The position numbers and the translations under genes were made by a program. The notes under the pieces were generated by a model. That model did no database searches. It was not told the origin of the DNA and saw nothing but the letters and a program-made list of their open reading frames with translations. Positions 16,250-36,155 of a DNA stretch of 42,338 nucleotides are shown here, one piece after another. Position 1 is the first letter of the stretch, and each line of letters begins with the position of its first letter. The stretch is from a virus. The DNA lies in the IMG/VR virus record IMGVR_UViG_3300009360_000004. One strand, 5' to 3'.

Positions 16250-16464
16250 TGCATGCAGGATTCGGATTCTTCTTCGCGCTCATATTTGGATTCATAATGC
16301 GCAACGCATGGCTTGGGTTCGCGATAGCTGTTCTAGCCGGGGCCACGAAAGAGGTTGTCTGGGACTGGTGGCTCAAGAAAGGGACGCCTGAGCTGTTAGA
16401 CTTCGTGGCGACACTCATCGGCGCGGCTCTAGGGTTTGCTATGCTGTTGCTCGTGCGCTTCTAG
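16237..16464 (+). CDS. Small multi-pass membrane protein (holin candidate)
   Basis: 75 aa, GTG start after ggaggt RBS; two to three hydrophobic helices (FGFFFALIFGFIM, LGFAIAVLAGA, FVATLIGAALGFAMLLLV). Confidence 0.45.
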   Translation: MDKVVHAGFGFFFALIFGFIMRNAWLGFAIAVLAGATKEVVWDWWLKKGTPELLDFVATLIGAALGFAMLLLVRF

Positions 16465-16474
16465 GGAGGTTGAT

Positions 16475-17599
16475 ATGAACAATCAATCGTGGACGGAATA
16501 CGAAGAAAAGAAAGCTGTCGAACTGCGAAACCGCGGGCTCACGTACCCGGAGATCGCGGCCGAGTTCCAGAAAGACGAACTTTGCCAGCCCAGGACCTCG
16601 GAGAGCATACGGCTCAGGACCTATGCCCTGACGGGGAAGACGCGTATCAAACCGAAACACAAAGAAAAACCAGCCTCAAAACCCACGGAAGAACCAGCCT
16701 CGAAGATCATCGACATACTCAAGCAACGCCGGGTAGCCACGCTGACCGAGCTGGCCGACGAGCTGGACACTTCTCCCCGTCGCACGAAAGAGGGCGTGCA
16801 GTCTCTCATCGCCGAGGGGAAGCGGCTGGAGCTGAAAGGCGAGACTGTGGAATTCATGGCCCCGAAAGGCGGAAAGACGACGACCTTGAAATCCGAGGAC
16901 GACGGCTGGTGCCGGTTCGGGCTGGTGTCGGACACGCATCTCGGTTCGAAGAAACAACAGATATCCGCGCTCAGGGACTTCTATCGTGAACTGAAGGCGC
17001 GCGGCATCACGAAGGCTTTCCACTCGGGCGACTGGGTGGCCGGGAAAAACATCTATCGTGGGCAGGAATACGAGCTTTTCTTGCACAGCATGAGAGAGCA
17101 GAAAGAGTATTTGATCCAGGAATACCCGGACGAGGGGATCGAGACAATCGGGATAGTGGGAAACCACGACTTTGCCTGGTCCGCGCTCGCGGGAGATTCG
17201 ATACTCGAAATGGCCGCGATGGTCCGCCCCGATATCAAGATCGTGGGTGAGTACCAGGCATTCGTCGAATGGAACGGCTTCAGGTTCTCGCTGCACCATC
17301 CAGACGGTGGGCAAGCATACGCGATCAGTTACAAACTTCAGAAACTCGTGGAGTCTTTCACAGCCGAGAACCTCCCCGACTTCGTGGTGATGGGCCACTT
17401 CCACCAAAAGGAATACGTGACCATCCGCGGTGTCGAGTGTTTCCAGCCAGGTTGCTTCGAGGCGCAGTCGCCGTACTTGATACGAAAGAACCTCCACCCA
17501 GCTATTGGAGGCTGGATTGTGGAGGCTCAGCGAAAAGAAAACCGCACACATATCATAGCAGAGTTTCTCAGTTATAAACCACTTGAACGGGACTGGTGA
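16475..17599 (+). CDS. HTH domain fused to calcineurin-like metallophosphoesterase
   Basis: 374 aa from ATG 16475 (RBS gggaggt). N-terminal HTH-like segments (LTYPEIAAEF; ATLTELADEL); C-terminal MPP motifs GLVSDTHLG, HSGDWVAG, GIVGNHDF, GHFHQ. Confidence 0.6.
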   Translation: MNNQSWTEYEEKKAVELRNRGLTYPEIAAEFQKDELCQPRTSESIRLRTYALTGKTRIKPKHKEKPASKPTEEPASKIIDILKQRRVATLTELADELDTSPRRTKEGVQSLIAEGKRLELKGETVEFMAPKGGKTTTLKSEDDGWCRFGLVSDTHLGSKKQQISALRDFYRELKARGITKAFHSGDWVAGKNIYRGQEYELFLHSMREQKEYLIQEYPDEGIETIGIVGNHDFAWSALAGDSILEMAAMVRPDIKIVGEYQAFVEWNGFRFSLHHPDGGQAYAISYKLQKLVESFTAENLPDFVVMGHFHQKEYVTIRGVECFQPGCFEAQSPYLIRKNLHPAIGGWIVEAQRKENRTHIIAEFLSYKPLERDW

Positions 17600-25966: not shown

Positions 25967-27643
25967 ATGACCGAGTTTCTGCAAGAACTTTGGGGCTTCA
26001 AGCCGGAGAATTTGTTCGTGCTGGTCTGGCAGAAAAGAGGAAAGAAATCGAACTGGTTTCAGGATATAGGAAAGATCGAGAGCTTCGCCCAGAAGAACAG
26101 GGATCTGTCGGACCTGTACATCGGCGTGGGTTTGAGCCCGAAAGACTACGGATCGAAGAACCGCTGCCCCGCGAACGAGGTATCGGGGATCGCTGGATTT
26201 TGGGCCGACATTGACATTCTCGACGAGGTTCACAAGAAGGAGAACCTCCCTGCCTCGCTCGAAGAGGCAAAGAGTCTTTTCCCCGAACCGCCCACGTGCG
26301 TAATCCATTCGGGGCATGGCATACAGGCGTGGTGGTTGTTCAGAGAACCGTGGATCTTCGAGAACGAAGACGAAAGATTCAAGGCTCAGGCGATGTGTCA
26401 AGCCTGGCACCACAGGCTGTTGGAAAGGGCGACCGCCCGGGGCTGGGTGATCGACGCGACATTCGACCTGTCGAGGATTCTGAGAATCCCCGGGACGAAG
26501 AATCTCAAAGATCCGAAAGACGTTCGAGACGTGGAGCTGATCGAGCAAGAATGGACTACGAGGTACGAACCGGAAGATCTGGTCCCCGCGATCGTGGTCG
26601 AGAAGAAGGAAAGAGTCGAGACGGAGATCGGGAGGATCGCACTGCGGCCCGACGCCGCGCCGCCCACGGAGAAGTGGGAGGCCCTGATGAGCGCCGAGCC
26701 GAAATTCAAGAAATCGTGGAACCACGACAGGAAGGATCTCTCAGACCAGTCACCCAGTTCTTACGATTTTAGTCTTGCTTCGATCGCGTTTCAGGCCGAC
26801 TGGACGGACCAGGAGATCGTGGATCTTCTCATCGCCCACAGAAGGAAACACAAGGCAGATCTGAAGTTGCGAAAGGACTACTATCTCAGGACGCTTGAAA
26901 AGTTGAAGCTGGAAAGGAAGTACCAGGAAAAAATCAACGAGGCTCTGGAAACGCACAGCAAAAGAGCCACGGAAATAAAGGTAGCGCTCGCGAACGCCAA
27001 AGTCACATTGATCGAAGCGGAGAACAACGGCGCGAGCCTTGAGCGTGAAGAGATACTCAAAGAGCTGGAAAAGATTCTCGGCGTAAGAATCGAGAAGCTC
27101 CAGAAGTTCCTCTCCGAGCCTCCGTCGTACCGGCTTCAGACTCTGGCCACGAATATCAGCATCGAATCGGCCGGAGACATCATCTCGCAAACGAAATTCA
27201 GAATCAAGATCGCCGACGCTACCGGGGTCGTGATTCGACCGTTCAAGAAGGAAGAATGGTCGGACATAGCACAATTGATCCTAAACGCCTGCGAAGAGAT
27301 CGAGGTCGGTGAGGAGTCCACAGAGGCAGGATTCATAAACAGCCTACTAAGAAAATACCTGCACAGGAACACGAACTTAGTTTCGTTGCAGTCGGTGGAA
27401 GAGTACGGAGAGAAGATCCAGGAAGAGGGCTTTCCCTTTTCCCTAGAGGGCTACACGTACATTTCACTGTCGGAGATGCGAAAATTCATCCGCGTAACCA
27501 GCGGTGACGTACTAACGACCAAGCAGGTGGGTAAGTTGTTGAGAATAGCGGGGTGGAGCAACTGTGTAATCAACGTAAAGGTCGATGAAAAGAAGACTTC
27601 ACGCTCTCTGTTCAAGAAAAAAATCGAGCCTTCTGAAGTTTAA
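25967..27643 (+). CDS. Primase-polymerase (archaeo-eukaryotic primase superfamily) replication protein
   Basis: 558 aa; AEP-type motifs DIDILD (DxD), SGHGIQAWW (sGxGxH), RIPGTKN. Confidence 0.65.
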   Translation: MTEFLQELWGFKPENLFVLVWQKRGKKSNWFQDIGKIESFAQKNRDLSDLYIGVGLSPKDYGSKNRCPANEVSGIAGFWADIDILDEVHKKENLPASLEEAKSLFPEPPTCVIHSGHGIQAWWLFREPWIFENEDERFKAQAMCQAWHHRLLERATARGWVIDATFDLSRILRIPGTKNLKDPKDVRDVELIEQEWTTRYEPEDLVPAIVVEKKERVETEIGRIALRPDAAPPTEKWEALMSAEPKFKKSWNHDRKDLSDQSPSSYDFSLASIAFQADWTDQEIVDLLIAHRRKHKADLKLRKDYYLRTLEKLKLERKYQEKINEALETHSKRATEIKVALANAKVTLIEAENNGASLEREEILKELEKILGVRIEKLQKFLSEPPSYRLQTLATNISIESAGDIISQTKFRIKIADATGVVIRPFKKEEWSDIAQLILNACEEIEVGEESTEAGFINSLLRKYLHRNTNLVSLQSVEEYGEKIQEEGFPFSLEGYTYISLSEMRKFIRVTSGDVLTTKQVGKLLRIAGWSNCVINVKVDEKKTSRSLFKKKIEPSEV

Positions 27644-27650
27644 TAACAAC

Positions 27651-27672
27651 CCCTATATATAGGGATTTTTTT
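27651..27672 (+). terminator. Rho-independent terminator after the primase gene
   Basis: Palindrome ccctatatataggg followed by seven T. Confidence 0.55.
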
Positions 27673-27756
27673 CATTGATTTTTATTTTACTCATGATTTA
27701 GTTCCAGATCGTTAGTATAGTTAGTAACCCCCATCAATAGCCAAACACAGATTAGG

Positions 27757-27786
27757 GGAATGGTTAGGAATGGTTAGGAATGGTTA
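27757..27786. repeat. Three perfect tandem 10-bp direct repeats GGAATGGTTA (iteron-like)
   Basis: Read directly at 27757-27766, 27767-27776, 27777-27786 in an AT-rich gap between primase and helicase genes. Confidence 0.7.
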
Positions 27787-27999
27787 TTCTGACGGTTCGA
27801 CTGAAATAATGGAGCTGTTATTGATTAAAAGCCACTCGCACACAATAAAACAAAGAAAATTAGTATCTATTACTTACCAACGTGTCATATAACCGACCAT
27901 AAAACGCCGATTTGATGTAACTGATTTTACTACCCCGTGACAAATGTTACTGATTCGCGGCTGATGCAATGTAGTTTTAAGAAAAGGAGGTGATGTACT

Positions 28000-29688
28000 G
28001 TGGGCCAGGAATACAGAGTTTTCGGTCCTCCCGGGACGGGAAAGACCACGTATCTGAGTCGTCAAATTGAGAAAGCTGCCGGTGAATATAACGGCTCGGT
28101 GATAGTTTCTTCTTTCACAAGAGCCGCTGCCGTGGAGTTGGTTCAAAGAAAACTGCCGGTATCGCGCGAGAGTATCGGGACTCTCCACGCTCTATGTTAT
28201 CGGGCGCTGGGCCGACCGAAAATAGCGGAACTTTTCACGGAGGATTTCAACACGGAGCATCCGGGGTACAAGATCAGCCAGAGAGGGACGGCGATGGAGG
28301 ATATAGAGGCCGCGAAATCGAAGACGCAGGGCGATGAGATTTTCGCACAGATGCAGATCAAGCGCGCGCGAATGATACCGAAAAGCGTCTGGCCCGAGAC
28401 TCTTCTCGACTTCTCGCGAGTGTGGGAGGGCTGGAAAGAAGAAAACGGGTACATGGATTTCACGGACCTGATCGAGGAAGCTATCAGGTCCGTACCTGTG
28501 GCTCCTCAATCTCCCGCGGTAGGTTTCTTCGACGAGGTCCAGGACTTCACGCCCGTACAATTGAAGCTCGTGAGGCAGTGGGTGTCCCACATGGATTTTG
28601 CTATCTTGGCCGGAGACGACGATCAGTGCATATACTCTTTCGCGGGCGCTTCACCCGAGGCGTTCCTTGAACCCGAGCTTCCACAAGAATACGTCAGGGT
28701 GTTGAACCAGTCATGGAGACTCCCCAGAACGATTCAGGAGTACGCGGACTCGTGGATTCGCAAAGTCGCTGTCAGATACCCGAAGCAATACAGGCCCAAA
28801 GATTCCGAAGGTTTCGTGACTTTGTTTGACGCGAAATGGAAGAATCCTGAATTGTATATCCGTGAAATAGAACGGTATATACAGGGGGGTAAGACTGTGA
28901 TGATCCTCGCTACGTGTTCATACATGCTAGACCCTCTGAAGAAGATTCTCAAAGAAGCTGCTATCCCATTTCACAATCCGTACCGCAAGAGTCGAGGAGA
29001 CTGGAACCCATTAGGAAAAAGAAACGGCGTGTCGATGGTCGAGAGGATCATGGCCTTCCTTCTCCCCAGCTTCGAGGCGTGGGGTGAAGAGTCTCGCTGG
29101 TGGAGGCTGGACGACCTAAAGAAATGGATCATGGTTCTCAATTCCGCCGGAGTTCTCCAGCGCGGCGCGAAGAAGGCTTTGCTCGAGAAGCTCGAGACCA
29201 CAGAGGCCGTCGAGAAGAAAGAGGACGATTCCTTCGAGTTCGGCGCGAACATCATAGACGCCGAGTTCGAGTTCGGTGCAAACGAGAAGGAGGATCCCGC
29301 AATCGGCGTGGAGGAAATACTCTCGCAGTTCGAGCCGGAGGCTCGAAGGAGGGCCGAGGCTTCGGACCTGGACTGGTTCTACCACAATCTCTTGCCCGCA
29401 AAGAAGAAAATCGCGCAGTACCCGGTTTCCATCGTCCAGAAACACGGAGCAAGGGCGCTGGTGGAGAAGCCGCGACTAATTGTGGGGACGATTCACAGCG
29501 TGAAGGGCGGCGAGGCGGATATAGTCTATCTCTTCCCCGATCTCTCGCAGGAGGCATACCGCAACGCGATGACTGACAGGAGCAACAGAGACAGTATCAA
29601 ACGCCAGATGTACGTGGGCATGACGCGCGCGAGAGAGGGTCTCTATATCTGTGAGCCCTCGGATATGTGCCACGTGAAGTTTTCATAG
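28000..29688 (+). CDS. Superfamily 1 (UvrD/PcrA-like) DNA helicase
   Basis: 562 aa from GTG 28000 (RBS aaaggaggtga); Walker A GPPGTGKTT, FDEVQD, TIHSVKGGEAD, MYVGMTRAREGLYI. Confidence 0.75.
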   Translation: MGQEYRVFGPPGTGKTTYLSRQIEKAAGEYNGSVIVSSFTRAAAVELVQRKLPVSRESIGTLHALCYRALGRPKIAELFTEDFNTEHPGYKISQRGTAMEDIEAAKSKTQGDEIFAQMQIKRARMIPKSVWPETLLDFSRVWEGWKEENGYMDFTDLIEEAIRSVPVAPQSPAVGFFDEVQDFTPVQLKLVRQWVSHMDFAILAGDDDQCIYSFAGASPEAFLEPELPQEYVRVLNQSWRLPRTIQEYADSWIRKVAVRYPKQYRPKDSEGFVTLFDAKWKNPELYIREIERYIQGGKTVMILATCSYMLDPLKKILKEAAIPFHNPYRKSRGDWNPLGKRNGVSMVERIMAFLLPSFEAWGEESRWWRLDDLKKWIMVLNSAGVLQRGAKKALLEKLETTEAVEKKEDDSFEFGANIIDAEFEFGANEKEDPAIGVEEILSQFEPEARRRAEASDLDWFYHNLLPAKKKIAQYPVSIVQKHGARALVEKPRLIVGTIHSVKGGEADIVYLFPDLSQEAYRNAMTDRSNRDSIKRQMYVGMTRAREGLYICEPSDMCHVKFS

Positions 29689-29696
29689 GAGGCAGC

Positions 29697-29987
29697 ATGA
29701 GCGAAAAGTCGATAGTTAACTCGATACTGAAGTACCTGAACTCTCTTCCACAGTGCAGGGCCGAGAAGACCTGGGGCGGCGGGTACGGGAACGCAGGGAA
29801 ACCCGATATCACAGGGTGCCTGAGCGGGCGGCGCTTCGAGCTGGAGGTCAAGGTCCCCGGGGGTAAACTGACCCCGCTTCAAAAAGTCACGCTCGAGCAG
29901 TGGAAAGAGGCGGGCGCGATTGTGGCTGTGGTTCACAGTGTCGAAGAAGTGAAGGAGATATTGAAGGAGGCAAAATGCGAGAAATGA
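29697..29987 (+). CDS. VRR-NUC domain nuclease
   Basis: 96 aa from ATG 29697 (RBS taggagg); GKPDITG...ELEVKVPGGKLTPLQK matches the PD-(D/E)xK VRR-NUC pattern. Confidence 0.6.
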   Translation: MSEKSIVNSILKYLNSLPQCRAEKTWGGGYGNAGKPDITGCLSGRRFELEVKVPGGKLTPLQKVTLEQWKEAGAIVAVVHSVEEVKEILKEAKCEK

Positions 29988-30253
29988 TCGACTTCAACGG
30001 CGAAAAGCTGAGGGCAATCAGAGAAGAGAAGTGTCTGACGCAACGCGAACTGGCTTCTCGCGCGGGAGTTACGCAGGTGTATCTATCCAAGATGGAGTGC
30101 AATCACATCATCCCCAGACGGGCCGTGTGCGAGAAGCTGGCATGGGCTCTTCGTGTCGATCCCGATGAGTTTTTCGGACCTGCGGGCGAGACGCTCGACG
30201 ACATAGAAAATTACACCCGGATGTTCGAGAAAGTCCGGGCTATGGGGATGTGA
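29975..30253 (+). CDS. XRE-family helix-turn-helix transcriptional regulator
   Basis: ATG 29975 after gaaggagg RBS, overlapping the VRR-NUC 3-prime end; LRAIREEKCLTQRELASRAGVTQVYLSKMECN is a typical HTH_XRE segment. Confidence 0.65.
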   Translation: MREMIDFNGEKLRAIREEKCLTQRELASRAGVTQVYLSKMECNHIIPRRAVCEKLAWALRVDPDEFFGPAGETLDDIENYTRMFEKVRAMGM

Positions 30254-30266
30254 GGAGGGCCTAGAA

Positions 30267-31166
30267 ATGAGAATCGGTCTGATTGATGTTGATTCGAAGA
30301 TCCCTAACCTCGCCCTGATGAAGCTCTCGGCATGGCACAAAGCGAAAGGAGATAAGGTCGGGTTTTTCAATGCGCTTCAGAGATACGATCGTGTCTATGC
30401 CTCGAAAATCTTCGGCTTCACGGATGACTTCAAATACTGGCCTGGCTGCGAGATCGTAAAAGGCGGCAGCGGATATGACCTTGAGGCAAAACTCCCAGAA
30501 GAGATAGAGCATACTTACCCCGACTATGGGCTTTACGGTTGTGATTATGCTATGGGCTTCATCACTAGAGGTTGCATCCGAAACTGTCCTTTCTGCATTG
30601 TGCCGAGAAAAGAAGGCACGATACGCAAATCTGCTGATTTAGAAGAGTTCTGGAATGGGCAAAAGAGATTGATGCTTCTCGATAACAACATAACAGCAGC
30701 TCCAAAAGTGTTTGAAGAGACTATAAACAAAATTGTCGATTTGAAGATCAAAGTTGATTTTAGTCAAGGGTTGGACGCAAGACTCGTTGATGACAAAAAG
30801 TCGCTGCTGCTGTCGAAAGTCAGGTTGTGGAAGCAGATTCGTCTAGCTTGGGACAACGTAAAGGATGAGAGAGAAGTACTTCTAGGTTTGGAGATCCTTC
30901 TCAAATACAATTCCCCGAAACGCCTGATGATCTACGTCCTCATAGGCTTCGATTCCACGCCCGAGGAAGATCTCTATCGAGTAGAAAGGCTTCGAGAGAT
31001 GAAACTCGACTCTTTCGCTATGCCTTTCGACAGAAGAGATCCATACCAGAGGAACTTTGCGAGGTGGGTCAATCATAAGGCGATATTCAAGAGTGTTTCG
31101 TGGAATGAATACACTGCCAATAGAAAGAAGAGGAAAAGAAATCCGAGACAACTGGAGGTGAACTGA
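30267..31166 (+). CDS. Radical SAM protein with B12-binding-like N-terminal segment
   Basis: 299 aa, RBS gaggaggg; canonical C-x3-C-x2-C (CIRNCPFC) in GFITRGCIRNCPFCIV; N-terminus MRIGLIDVD...NLALMKLSAWHKAKGDKV resembles a Rossmann-like B12-binding segment. Confidence 0.65.
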   Translation: MRIGLIDVDSKIPNLALMKLSAWHKAKGDKVGFFNALQRYDRVYASKIFGFTDDFKYWPGCEIVKGGSGYDLEAKLPEEIEHTYPDYGLYGCDYAMGFITRGCIRNCPFCIVPRKEGTIRKSADLEEFWNGQKRLMLLDNNITAAPKVFEETINKIVDLKIKVDFSQGLDARLVDDKKSLLLSKVRLWKQIRLAWDNVKDEREVLLGLEILLKYNSPKRLMIYVLIGFDSTPEEDLYRVERLREMKLDSFAMPFDRRDPYQRNFARWVNHKAIFKSVSWNEYTANRKKRKRNPRQLEVN

Positions 31167-31339
31167 TGGAGATACAAGCGATAGAAGATTCGAAGCTGCT
31201 TAAGCGCGGGACGAAAGTGATCCACAACGGCCAGAAGTGTACGGTTCTGAACTTCAGGCACAACGGGAAGGGCTACGAATACTTCCTGAGCGACAGGAAG
31301 TGGGTGAAGAGACATCAGGTTAGGAGGGTGAGGGAATGA
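31166..31339 (+). CDS. Small basic hypothetical protein
   Basis: 57-codon ORF, ATG overlapping the radical SAM stop, RBS ctggaggtga; below the track cut-off. Confidence 0.35.
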   Translation: MEIQAIEDSKLLKRGTKVIHNGQKCTVLNFRHNGKGYEYFLSDRKWVKRHQVRRVRE

Positions 31340-31494
31340 AGAACGCAATCAAACCAAGCGGCATACCGATGTTTTGCTATTGCGTGGGTTGCAGAAAAAA
31401 GATATTTGACCTCTCCTCGGTATTGTTGTCGTTTGAGCATAAGGGAATTCTCTGCCATGATTGCTACTACAAAAAAGAGAGGAGGCAACAATGA
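31336..31494 (+). CDS. Small zinc-ribbon protein
   Basis: 52-codon ORF after taggagggtgaggga RBS; CYCVGC ... CHDC cysteine pairs. Confidence 0.35.
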   Translation: MKNAIKPSGIPMFCYCVGCRKKIFDLSSVLLSFEHKGILCHDCYYKKERRQQ

Positions 31495-31754
31495 CTGAAG
31501 ACATCACAGTAAAAGTCATACGTCACGATCCAAAAGACCCTTCCCTATACATCACCGGTGACATAGCCGATGCGTTGAGGGTGTTCGACGAGAGGGTAGC
31601 GGCACATTCGCAAACCGGTAGGCTTGTCGTTACAAAAGTCGAGCTGTGGGTCGGAGATAGACTCGTGAAGTATGCTGACAAAGAAGGAGTGTTCGATGTG
31701 AAATATACCAGAGCCGGTGTGTATCAAGGTGTTGAAAAGGAGGCCGCCGAATGA
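31491..31754 (+). CDS. Hypothetical protein
   Basis: ATG 31491 after agaggagg RBS (track ORF starts at 31461). Confidence 0.45.
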   Translation: MTEDITVKVIRHDPKDPSLYITGDIADALRVFDERVAAHSQTGRLVVTKVELWVGDRLVKYADKEGVFDVKYTRAGVYQGVEKEAAE

Positions 31755-32257
31755 GCGATAAGATCCAGGGTTTCAATCCTAACGTAGTTGACGAGATCCG
31801 CACGGTCTTCGACGCAGGAAAAGAGATCGACAGGATAGACATCGAAGATCTCTTCATCGCTATCGACTACTGGCGGCACGGTCAGCAGAAAGAACACGAG
31901 CTGGTAATCCAGGCTTTCAACGCTCAGAAACTCAGCTTCTTTGTGTACCAGTTGAAGTCCGAGCGGACGATGAACACCTCACTTTCACTGAAAGACCAGC
32001 TCAATAACTATGTCTTTGGGTTGGTGGGTGAAGTCGGTGAAGTCGTGGATCTCCTGAAGAAGTTCTTCTACCACGGCCACGAGGTTGATTCCAACAGGCT
32101 CAAAAGCGAACTCGGAGACATTCTCTGGTACGTCTCGGCTGTGGCAAGTCTGTTCGATATCAATCTTCAAGAGGTCGCACAACACAACATCGAGAAGCTG
32201 GAGAAGAGATATCCGAATGGGTTCTCAAGTGAAGCGAGCAAGGGAAGGGAGGGATAG
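31751..32257 (+). CDS. mazG: MazG-like nucleoside triphosphate pyrophosphohydrolase
   Basis: 168 aa; GLVGEVGEVVD and ELGDILWYV match the MazG/HisE EExxE-type motifs. Confidence 0.65.
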   Translation: MSDKIQGFNPNVVDEIRTVFDAGKEIDRIDIEDLFIAIDYWRHGQQKEHELVIQAFNAQKLSFFVYQLKSERTMNTSLSLKDQLNNYVFGLVGEVGEVVDLLKKFFYHGHEVDSNRLKSELGDILWYVSAVASLFDINLQEVAQHNIEKLEKRYPNGFSSEASKGREG

Positions 32258-32260
32258 AAG

Positions 32261-32749
32261 ATGAAAGATCAAGAAATTCGGGATCTGTCAGAAATTCTGG
32301 AACTTTATGAGAATTTGTCGGCAAACCAGAACCGCACCCAGGATGAGCAAGACAATCTCGATATGGCCGAGTATATCCTCATTCAGTCGATGAAACCTCT
32401 CCTGGAAGAGGCGAAGAAACTGAAATATGCGAGGTGTAAGAACTGCAAGTGGTTTAGCAGAGAGCCGATAGAGGGGAAATGGCCAAAATTCTCTAGTCGA
32501 ACCGATATCCAGGGTGAAAAGAAGCTACTCGACAAAGGTTTTGGAAGATGCGCCCACGACAAGGTGGACGAACAGGCGTTCTTCTACGATGACGAACAGG
32601 TCGGCTTCGGACAGCCCGGCTATCCCGAAAAGGTCGATTACACCGGAATGATGATCGATTGCAGCACGAATGAGTGTGGTTTCTTGCTCCACGAAACATT
32701 CGGGTGCGTGAACTTCGAGAAGAAGGAGGCAGGGAATGAAGAACGTTGA
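32261..32749 (+). CDS. Cysteine-rich hypothetical protein
   Basis: 162 aa; CKNCKW ... GRCAHD ... CSTNECG ... GC suggests metal binding. Confidence 0.45.
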   Translation: MKDQEIRDLSEILELYENLSANQNRTQDEQDNLDMAEYILIQSMKPLLEEAKKLKYARCKNCKWFSREPIEGKWPKFSSRTDIQGEKKLLDKGFGRCAHDKVDEQAFFYDDEQVGFGQPGYPEKVDYTGMMIDCSTNECGFLLHETFGCVNFEKKEAGNEER

Positions 32750-32906
32750 CAGATTCCTCAACAGACAGAAAGAAAAAGTAACCTCTCCCGAAAGGCTTGA
32801 GAAAAAGAGGATAAAGAAACAACTTCAAGAAGCGGCAAGAGCTGACGAAATCTATGGGCCTGAAGAAGAACGAGAGAATCGAAGGGAGGAGGCCACAAAT
32901 GATTAA
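32736..32906 (+). CDS. Small basic/acidic hypothetical protein
   Basis: 56-codon ORF with gaaggagg RBS; below track cut-off. Confidence 0.3.
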   Translation: MKNVDRFLNRQKEKVTSPERLEKKRIKKQLQEAARADEIYGPEEERENRREEATND

Positions 32907-34821: not shown

Positions 34822-34998
34822 TTGAGTCAGGCCATACAATGCGACGAATGTGGAAAGACTGCACATATGACCCATCACTGGCACAAGCTCGACGGGCTGG
34901 ACTTCTGCTCGTGGAAGTGTGTGCGAAGGTTTGCGAATCGAAGGATCAAACAGGATCGGGAGTATCAGAGAGAGAAAGAAGGGATTGAATGCAGATAG
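34822..34998 (+). CDS. Small zinc-binding protein
   Basis: 58 aa from TTG 34822, 5 nt after tggaggt RBS; CDECGK ... CSWKC. Confidence 0.4.
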   Translation: MSQAIQCDECGKTAHMTHHWHKLDGLDFCSWKCVRRFANRRIKQDREYQREKEGIECR

Positions 34999-36155
34999 AA
35001 AAGAAGAAAGTCTCCGACTTAAAGTGTGCTCCATACAACCCGCGAAAGATTGACGACAAAGAGCTTGCAAAACTAAAACGAAGCATCACCGAGTTTGGTT
35101 ATGTAGAACCTATTGTCTGGAATAAACGCTCGGGCTTCGTTGTGGGAGGTAATCAGAGACTCAAGGCATTACGTGAGCTTGAAATAGAGGAAGCCGATGT
35201 CGTGGTTGTTGACCTTGACGACGCAAAGGAGAAAGCTCTCAATGTCGCCTTGAATAAAATCTCTGGCGAGTGGGACTTCATCAAGCTAAAGGACGTATTG
35301 ACTGACATTGACACAGGAGACTTTGACATAGAGCTGACTGGGTTTGATTTGGATGAGATAGGAGAATTGATAGCTTTCGACAAAGAACCTGAAGAAGATG
35401 GTTTCGACGTAGACGCTGCATTAGAAAACACAGAAGAACCCGTGACAAAACGCGGTGACATTTACCTGCTTGGAAAACATCGCCTGATGTGCGGGGACTC
35501 AACTATCAAAGAAGATGTCGAGAAGCTGATGGATGGTAAGAAAGCGGATATGGTGTTCACTGACCCGCCTTATGGGGTGAATTACGATGGCGGCACTAAA
35601 CTACGAAACAAATTAGCGGGCGATGATACCACCGATTTGTACGAGCCTTGCTGCAAAATGGCACGCGATTTCTCGACGAACGAAGCGGCTTTGTATCTTT
35701 GGCACGCAGGGGTGAAAGGGATAGCAGCCGCAGCCGCAGCCGCAGATTGGGTCATTCGTTGTGAGATAGTTTGGAATAAAAACCATGCACAATTCGGCGC
35801 GTTGTCGGCACAGTACAAACAAAAGCACGAGCCTTGTTATTATTGCTACAAAAAAGGAAAGACGGTAAATTGGTGTGGGCCGAAAAACGAAGTAACGGTG
35901 TGGGACGTTGACAGAGCGTTGGTGAATGAATACCATCCCACACAGAAGCCGGTGGAGTTGGCAAAACGCGCTATTCAAAACCACAAAGCGGATTTGGTAC
36001 TCGACTTATTCGGCGGCTCAGGCTCAACACTCATAGCTTGTGAACAGCTCAACCGCATCTGCTACATGATAGAAATTGACGAGCGATACTGCGATGTAAT
36101 CGTAAAGCGTTGGGAAGAATTCACAGGCAAGAAAGCTCAATTGATGAGGAAGTGA
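34989..36155 (+). CDS. ParB-like nuclease domain fused to DNA N6-adenine/N4-cytosine methyltransferase
   Basis: 388 aa; C-terminal motif IV FTDPPYG precedes motif I LDLFGGSGST; N-terminal ~120 aa is ParB/Srx-like. Confidence 0.7.
   Translation: MQIEKKKVSDLKCAPYNPRKIDDKELAKLKRSITEFGYVEPIVWNKRSGFVVGGNQRLKALRELEIEEADVVVVDLDDAKEKALNVALNKISGEWDFIKLKDVLTDIDTGDFDIELTGFDLDEIGELIAFDKEPEEDGFDVDAALENTEEPVTKRGDIYLLGKHRLMCGDSTIKEDVEKLMDGKKADMVFTDPPYGVNYDGGTKLRNKLAGDDTTDLYEPCCKMARDFSTNEAALYLWHAGVKGIAAAAAAADWVIRCEIVWNKNHAQFGALSAQYKQKHEPCYYCYKKGKTVNWCGPKNEVTVWDVDRALVNEYHPTQKPVELAKRAIQNHKADLVLDLFGGSGSTLIACEQLNRICYMIEIDERYCDVIVKRWEEFTGKKAQLMRK

Follow-up and report, generated by a model that had tools for sequence, protein, structure and literature searches.

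The window analysed here, a 42,338-nucleotide (nt) stretch of viral DNA (IMG/VR record IMGVR_UViG_3300009360_000004), carries a gene for a 299-amino-acid (aa) protein that is very probably, judging from its sequence and predicted structure, a real radical S-adenosylmethionine (SAM) enzyme with a stripped-down B12-type front domain. The gene, called the rSAM gene below, is an optional, dispensable and self-contained single-gene cassette without an obligate partner, and its family is carried by phages, archaeal viruses, plasmids and conjugative elements, mostly of anaerobes. The protein represents a minimal branch, borne by mobile genetic elements, of the radical SAM clade formed by B12-domain enzymes and methylthiotransferases (MTTases). 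The most economical reading of its role, offered tentatively and at somewhat less than an even chance, is that of a DNA-directed, radical-modifying accessory enzyme serving counter-restriction. A preliminary description of the sequence had listed a 299-aa open reading frame (ORF) with the motif CIRNCPFC and two small overlapping ORFs behind it (mini-ORFs A and B), and all three were found in place. The coordinates of all features are compiled in Table 1.

The rSAM ORF starts with ATG and is preceded, about 8 nt upstream, by the ribosome-binding site GAGGAGG. Homologues were compared in two alignments, one of 64 close homologues (A2) and one of 93 diverse homologues with 33-53% identity (A6). 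The three cysteines of the CxxxCxxC motif were invariant in both, and G67 and D196 were the only other invariant positions among the 93 diverse sequences. Conservation of at least 90% in the diverse set was found for D9, N14, K19, G66, P85-D86-Y87, R101-G102, E116-G117, D139, N141, G168, D170, R172, R238 and N269. The cysteine motif is beyond chance. The cluster loop of RimO and MiaB aligned with it, and the protein has a RimO-like cluster loop together with a 'VLIGFxxxxEED' beta-5 motif.

The Pfam model Radical_SAM (PF04055) scored 20.4 bits on the protein against a gathering cut-off of 29.5 and covered only residues 99-139, that is, the cysteine loop. Weak PF04055 matches were present in 61 of the 64 close homologues (best E 3.9e-6). 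The sub-threshold score is a gap in profile coverage and does not count against the radical SAM fold. NCBIfam models of RimO, MiaB and B12-type radical SAM enzymes gave 11-17 bits, their cut-offs being 251-360; TIGR01125 and TIGR00089 reached 16-17 bits against cut-offs of 357 and 251, respectively. At curated cut-offs the protein belonged to no Pfam or NCBIfam family. It was matched over its full length by the hidden Markov model (HMM) of PHROG 9298 (E 4.5e-95; residues 1-288 on profile positions 1-297 of 305), a functionally blank catalogue family labelled 'radical SAM domain protein'. A sequence profile search of the PDB gave a best E value of only 0.03.

The AlphaFold2 model built from the 64-sequence alignment had a predicted local distance difference test (pLDDT) score of 94.3 and a predicted template modelling (pTM) score of 0.87. 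Its core is a partial (beta/alpha)6 TIM barrel, the radical SAM core fold, and the protein stops at residue 299, three short helices past the barrel. The B12-binding-like Rossmann N terminus that had been described earlier was structurally right in the model, though reduced to four strands and one helix. A PF02310-type Pfam B12-binding match was present in none of the 64 close homologues, and neither alignment contained an invariant or near-invariant cysteine within residues 1-100. The protein has no auxiliary-cluster cysteines and no C-terminal substrate domain, and no TRAM, SPASM/twitch, RRE or helix-hairpin-helix (HhH) domain was recognised in it. The structural neighbours closest to the model were MgmA, RimO, MiaB, AprD4 and TsrM; CysS and TokK were also matched, and a search of BFVD gave no close structural match. 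Two outcomes had been named beforehand as speaking against a radical SAM enzyme, a cysteine motif not conserved in homologues and the lack of a fold match. Neither was observed.

Class B enzymes and their relatives were represented in the comparison by MgmA/QCMT (9ccb), TsrM (6wte), CysS (9n1b), TokK (7kdx) and AprD4 (6fd2), the last a non-B12 relative. The rSAM protein is much shorter than the matched class B chains, as had been noted earlier (299 aa versus 417-658 aa, with 12-15% sequence identity), and lies below the size of roughly 400-700 aa expected of the class. Unlike these enzymes, it has an N-terminal domain cut to four strands and one helix, and it lacks a C-terminal domain. Class B genes sit in biosynthetic clusters, whereas the rSAM gene travels singly on mobile elements. 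MiaB and RimO (7mjv, 4jc0) possess a three-cysteine auxiliary cluster site (UPF0004) and a TRAM domain, both of which are absent from the rSAM protein. Identity as an MTTase was ruled out by the missing auxiliary cysteine triad, the missing TRAM domain and NCBIfam scores far below the cut-offs. B12-domain radical SAM enzymes and MTTases are nearest in working principle, and the protein proved to be a member of neither. Because there is no Pfam B12 match, no auxiliary cysteine triad and no C-terminal domain, it stands outside both groups in the strict sense and is a minimal offshoot of that clade. The members of PHROG 9298 share its size, its motifs and its position in a replication/recombination module and are 26-49% identical to it over the full length. 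They include Clostridium phage phiCT453B gp19, the Bacteroides phages LoVEphage, BKO1-TP3 and BI-TP1, Phocaeicola phage PV4-TP1 and the Methanomassiliicoccales viruses vir215 and vir335. No essential difference from the rSAM protein was found, and PHROG 9298 is its own family.

A profile search of 1.84 billion representatives returned 911 clusters (defined at 50% identity) at E<=1e-30 and 2,729 at E<=1e-10, and nearly all family members were 280-330 aa long. Seventeen records were found in annotated phage genomes by tblastn, and every named host was an anaerobe (Clostridium tetani, Bacteroides, Phocaeicola, Oscillospiraceae, Methanomassiliicoccales and Marinitoga). A collection with one genome per species contained at least 579 confirmed places, the best 80 of which lay almost all in obligate anaerobes (Clostridia, Bacteroidales, Desulfo-lineages, methanogens and Ignavibacteriales). 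About 19 of these 80 were type IV secretion system (T4SS) operons of conjugative elements rather than prophages, with the order TrbL/VirB6, rSAM, PrgI, VirB4-like ATPase and N6/N4 DNA methylase. Homologues of about 44% identity inside such operons were located at L331:3121-8600 and at about 18 similar loci (L286, L298, L301, L316, L319-L326 and others) on chromosomes of Lachnospiraceae and other Clostridia. Plasmids contributed 23 records. GenBank and PGAP named the genes of the family only 'radical SAM protein' or 'hypothetical protein'.

The optional nature of the gene was directly visible in a near-identical relative. Locus L252 was 99.97% identical to window positions 27001-30257, skipped exactly positions 30258-31174 and resumed at 31175 with mini-ORF A. 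Its gene order was XRE, mini-ORF A, a 212-aa helix-turn-helix (HTH) protein and mini-ORF B. In the collinear locus L004 (87% nt identity) the order was XRE, rSAM, mini-ORF A and DUF5131, in L255 mini-ORF A, DUF5131, mini-ORF B and YopX, and in L003 rSAM and DUF5131. The DUF5131 slot of these relatives corresponds to the junction of mini-ORFs A and B in the window, at about 31339-31345; similarity of the window to L004 ended at 31344 and was picked up again at 32899. In the early-gene array, small conserved scaffold genes are interspersed, mosaic-like, with slots whose content is exchanged, and the recombination junctions lie at gene starts. One slot holds rSAM, another DUF5131 or the 212-aa HTH protein, and another MazG and its neighbours.

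DUF5131 (PF07505) is listed inside the radical SAM superfamily at RadicalSAM.org (PMC9477430). It is a separate family of about 250 aa with the motif Cx6CxxC. As an obligate second partner of rSAM it was rejected, being present in only 6 of the 85 rSAM-anchored loci used for neighbour analysis and absent from the window. The DUF5131 protein of L004 matched the PADLOC phage-defence-candidate models PDC-M41B and PDC-M30B with E values of about 1e-83.

The commonest neighbour cluster in the 85 loci was a C5 cytosine methyltransferase, found in 25 of them, and no cluster exceeded this number. N6/N4 methyltransferases, VRR-NUC, PAPS-reductase-like proteins, SSB, RecT and DUF5131 followed. For a control, RecT- and SSB-anchored loci from the same viral collection were scanned with the same HMMs after de-duplication of all sets. 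A C5 or N6/N4 DNA methyltransferase was present within 5 kb in 29 of 68 rSAM loci and in 20 of 103 controls (Fisher p=0.0017). The C5 enzymes alone occurred in 18/68 versus 13/103 loci (p=0.026) and the N6/N4 enzymes alone in 15/68 versus 8/103 (p=0.011), and in 10 of the 68 rSAM loci a C5 methyltransferase lay no more than 500 bp from the rSAM gene. PAPS reductases were not enriched relative to the controls (6/68 versus 7/103, p=0.77), and a homologue on a Trichlorobacter plasmid was flanked by two PAPS-reductase-family genes and a Dcm. As a link to DNA, the co-location with methyltransferases is suggestive only. Coupling to MazG was rejected, the MazG gene being present in only 4 of 86 sequences (the 85 loci plus the window).

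Fusions were looked for among the 150 family representatives listed. P0208 (L086:684-2036) joined rSAM to a C-terminal Dam-type N6-adenine methyltransferase, and this fusion was verified on its contig. N-terminal extensions that read as winged-helix-like were present in P0162 (L087:6001-7209), P0191 (L088:6001-7248) and P0265; that of P0162 had a weak, sub-threshold Pfam match to HTH_CodY (E 5e-4). P0162 adjoins a cluster of N6/N4 methyltransferase, SNF2/ResIII helicase and PD-(D/E)xK genes, and P0231 carries a C-terminal extension that is HTH-like by eye. In P0156 (674 aa) a LAGLIDADG-type intein interrupts the conserved GF|TRGC motif just ahead of the cluster cysteines, a location that usually marks a site important for function. 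An intein is also annotated in a member of the same family on a plasmid of an uncultured archaeon (match H28, LC711081.1).

The presence or absence of the gene in close relatives, its spread over phages, plasmids and integrative and conjugative elements (ICEs), and the clues from neighbours and fusions together point to an accessory role from which any DNA entering a cell could benefit. The enzyme would reductively cleave SAM to a 5'-deoxyadenosyl radical, and this radical would be used on nucleic acid. DNA of the element itself is the likeliest target, or else a base methylated by a methyltransferase encoded nearby. The covalent modification so formed might help incoming DNA to evade the host's restriction or defence in settings without O2-dependent chemistry. 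Should the N-terminal domain bind a corrinoid, the reaction could be a C-methylation; otherwise a rearrangement or oxidation initiated by hydrogen abstraction would be expected. Spelled out in full, the idea is that a minimal, possibly corrinoid-using radical SAM enzyme marks phage, plasmid and conjugative-element DNA after replication with a modification not described so far, for example by base C-methylation or by radical processing of 5-methylcytosine or N6-methyladenine made by a neighbour. It would be an O2-independent counterpart of TET/5mYOX-type hypermodification for restriction evasion by the elements of anaerobes. In this specific form the proposal is speculative and rather unlikely to hold.

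Phage radical SAM genes have been discussed in a DNA-modification context for the thymidine hypermodification pathways (PMC8989533), and an unknown DNA modification was proposed by the authors for the radical SAM module of Thermus phage Cumys/phiMa (PMC11437467). The role is of the same kind as that proposed here. However, the phages with these hypermodification enzymes were not among the 17 tblastn matches, no sequence relationship was detectable, and the enzymes act with partner genes (kinases, DUF483), whereas the present family has no conserved partner.

Several observations weigh against a DNA-directed enzyme. The methyltransferase enrichment was only about 2-fold, the HMMs behind it were built from rSAM-anchored loci, which biases their sensitivity, and it could reflect accessory genes that share variable hot-spots; in 57% of the rSAM loci no methyltransferase was nearby. 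Fusions were rare, with one Dam fusion and three extended N termini among the representatives listed, and the winged-helix reading of the extensions of P0191 and P0265 rests on inspection of their sequences. In the protein itself no domain for binding nucleic acids, such as TRAM or HhH, could be recognised, and the isoelectric point (pI) of the family is only mildly basic (median 8.2). Its closest structural relatives target proteins (MgmA, RimO), tRNA (MiaB) or small molecules (AprD4, TsrM), and none of them DNA. Distant plasmid homologues with 25-34% identity occurred in aerobic Alphaproteobacteria. Literature searches found no paper on the family and no biochemical or genetic data on any member.

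The main rival is a counter-defence function with a target other than DNA, such as consumption of the SAM needed by type I/III restriction-modification systems or BREX, destruction of a nucleotide signal or modification of a host protein. Co-location with methyltransferases would then reflect nothing but shared anti-defence hot-spots. This alternative explains the accessory behaviour equally well: a dispensable cassette, found alike on phages, plasmids and ICEs and free of an obligate partner gene, would be expected, and the nearest folds act on proteins or small molecules. It explains the fusions less well, as the Dam domain and the winged-helix-like extensions point to DNA. PADLOC gave no match for rSAM as a known defence or anti-defence component, and no anti-defence member was reported in the literature searched. 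Radical SAM turnover is slow beside that of dedicated SAM lyases, which also counts against this rival. Overall the rival is unlikely, though it has to be reckoned with seriously.

An RNA-modifying enzyme following the logic of MiaB, RimO or RlmN, which would alter host or phage tRNA or rRNA and so tune translation during infection, is improbable. The N-terminal domain lacks the auxiliary cysteine triad, a TRAM domain is missing, and NCBIfam scores were about 16 bits against cut-offs of 251-357. The neighbours are DNA-metabolism genes and not tRNA genes or RNA enzymes. An activating enzyme for a glycyl-radical enzyme of the host, similar to NrdG or the pyruvate formate-lyase activase (PFL-AE) and raising the anaerobic supply of deoxynucleoside triphosphates together with MazG, is more improbable still. 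It would fit the bias towards anaerobes, the location in a replication module and the MazG gene two genes downstream. However, glycyl-radical activases are not known to have an N-terminal Rossmann domain, and their cysteine motif lies near the N terminus; no NrdD or other glycyl-radical enzyme was among the recurrent neighbour clusters characterised, and MazG was as rare as stated above. The activase was rejected on fold rank and architecture.

Mini-ORFs A and B had been presented in the preliminary description as forming a unit with rSAM, and this part of it did not hold. L252, L253 and L255 all have the two of them but no rSAM gene. Of the 85 rSAM-family loci, L004 was the only one with mini-ORF A, and mini-ORF B was absent from all. 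Because the near-identical relative L252 keeps both mini-ORFs and yet has no rSAM gene, they are not partners of rSAM; as partners or substrates they were rejected on the evidence of L252 and of L255, in which DUF5131 stands between them. Each is a small gene in its own right within what is probably one transcribed array, a conserved scaffold gene beside variable slots, and the overlaps between start and stop codons reflect the usual packing of this array, not a functional unit. Mini-ORF A differed from its L004 homologue in 14 synonymous and 4 non-synonymous codons and is a real gene under purifying selection; Pfam EFP_N matched its residues 11-35 below the cut-off (E 0.005; 17.2 bits versus 23). 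Mini-ORF B reads CYCVGC...CHDC. Its homologues formed only 4 clusters among 5.8 billion proteins, and C14, C16, C19, C40 and C43 were invariant across them. Its AlphaFold2 model showed a hairpin at residues 13-25 with low confidence (pLDDT 57), and no Pfam, PHROG or NCBIfam match was obtained. The label zinc ribbon is plausible for this protein. A tblastn search of phage genomes with both mini-ORFs gave nothing useful. Many radical SAM enzymes modify small cysteine-rich peptides, and the stop/start overlaps from rSAM through mini-ORF A to mini-ORF B might suggest a peptide maturase acting on the mini-ORF products in a module like those of ribosomally synthesised and post-translationally modified peptides, but this is barely credible given close relatives that hold both mini-ORFs without rSAM, their near-absence from the 85 loci, and a protein that ends after its core without SPASM/twitch or RRE.

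Table 1. Features of the rSAM locus and its surroundings; positions refer to the window unless a locus is named
Feature	Position	Strand	Length	Remarks
rSAM gene, very probable radical SAM-fold enzyme	30267..31166	+	299 aa	PHROG 9298 family
Reduced Rossmann-like N-terminal domain, B12-binding-like, about residues 1-70	30267..30476	+		Four strands and one helix in the model; no conserved Cys triad
CxxxCxxC motif, CIRNCPFC, residues 103-110 (C103, C107, C110)	30573..30596	+		Predicted SAM-binding [4Fe-4S] cluster site
rSAM cassette, gene plus its own ribosome-binding site	30258..31174	+		Boundaries from junction alignment with L252
Mini-ORF A, basic (pI 10.3), possibly KOW/SH3-like	31166..31339	+	57 aa	ATG overlaps rSAM stop (TGATG)
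Mini-ORF B, candidate small zinc-binding protein	31336..31494	+	52 aa	CxCxxC...CxxC; ATGA overlap with mini-ORF A
Next coupled ORF, from ATG 31491	31491..31754	+	87 aa	ATGA overlap with mini-ORF B; no Pfam or PHROG family
VRR-NUC-like nuclease	29667..29987	+		PHROG 93 E 1.8e-22; Pfam VRR_NUC below cut-off (E 1e-3)
XRE-type HTH regulator just ahead of rSAM	29975..30253	+		HTH_3 E 2.9e-11
MazG-like nucleotide pyrophosphohydrolase	31751..32257	+		Pfam MazG E 1.8e-14; PHROG 229 E 1.9e-32
ParB-domain N6/N4 DNA methyltransferase	34989..36155	+		PHROG 498 E 7.8e-141; PHROG 620
DUF5131 genes in close relatives	L004:7079-7822; L003:6918-7670; L255:517-1269			PF07505, Cx6CxxC

The window is the genome of a tailed phage with a block for replication and recombination, including helicases and a primase-like protein, and with genes for a ParB-domain DNA methyltransferase, terminase, portal and lysis proteins. 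The XRE regulator and the VRR-NUC nuclease described upstream of rSAM were borne out by their profile matches (Table 1); the start of the XRE gene was taken from the homologous gene call in L252, which like that in L004 is 92 aa long. The preliminary description had seen no other modification genes. This stood for Que/Dpd-type genes, none of which was found among the window ORFs scanned (not every ORF being covered), but the ParB-domain N6/N4 methyltransferase is encoded, as is MazG. Within the scanned ORFs no further gene for DNA modification was recognised. The methyltransferase belongs to neighbour cluster 5, and the representative of this cluster matches Pfam N6_N4_Mtase. A promoter and terminator scan found no plus-strand site between about 28,600 and 33,800, with site counts at chance level overall; the site-free stretch is consistent with one transcribed array.

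The identical mini-ORF B protein was found on 11 contigs, the longest of 42,430 nt, so the window is probably a near-complete phage genome of about 42.4 kb that is present in several metagenomes. A megablast search with positions 22000-42338 against 50,697 deposited phage records gave no match. Just past MazG, a cysteine-rich 162-aa ORF (32261-32749, plus strand; CKNCKW...C...C) had no Pfam family and a marginal PHROG match; it lies in the segment that replaces DUF5131 and its neighbours of L004. A 387-aa ORF (16436-17599, plus strand) between the tail and lysis genes matched SbcD-like/DNA-repair exonuclease PHROGs weakly (E 7e-7), and this interval is an unusual place for such a gene.

The rSAM gene belongs to one of the larger uncharacterised groups of radical SAM proteins on mobile DNA, a family that includes many members from gut and other anaerobic microbiomes. 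If the enzyme does modify DNA, it would represent a radical, oxygen-independent marking of mobile DNA against restriction, and as a compact enzyme of about 290 aa it would allow a study of how small a B12-domain radical SAM enzyme can become. Even if DNA is not its target, the gene could encode an anti-defence activity of a new kind. The window and L252 form a natural pair of phages with and without rSAM, which makes the idea directly testable.

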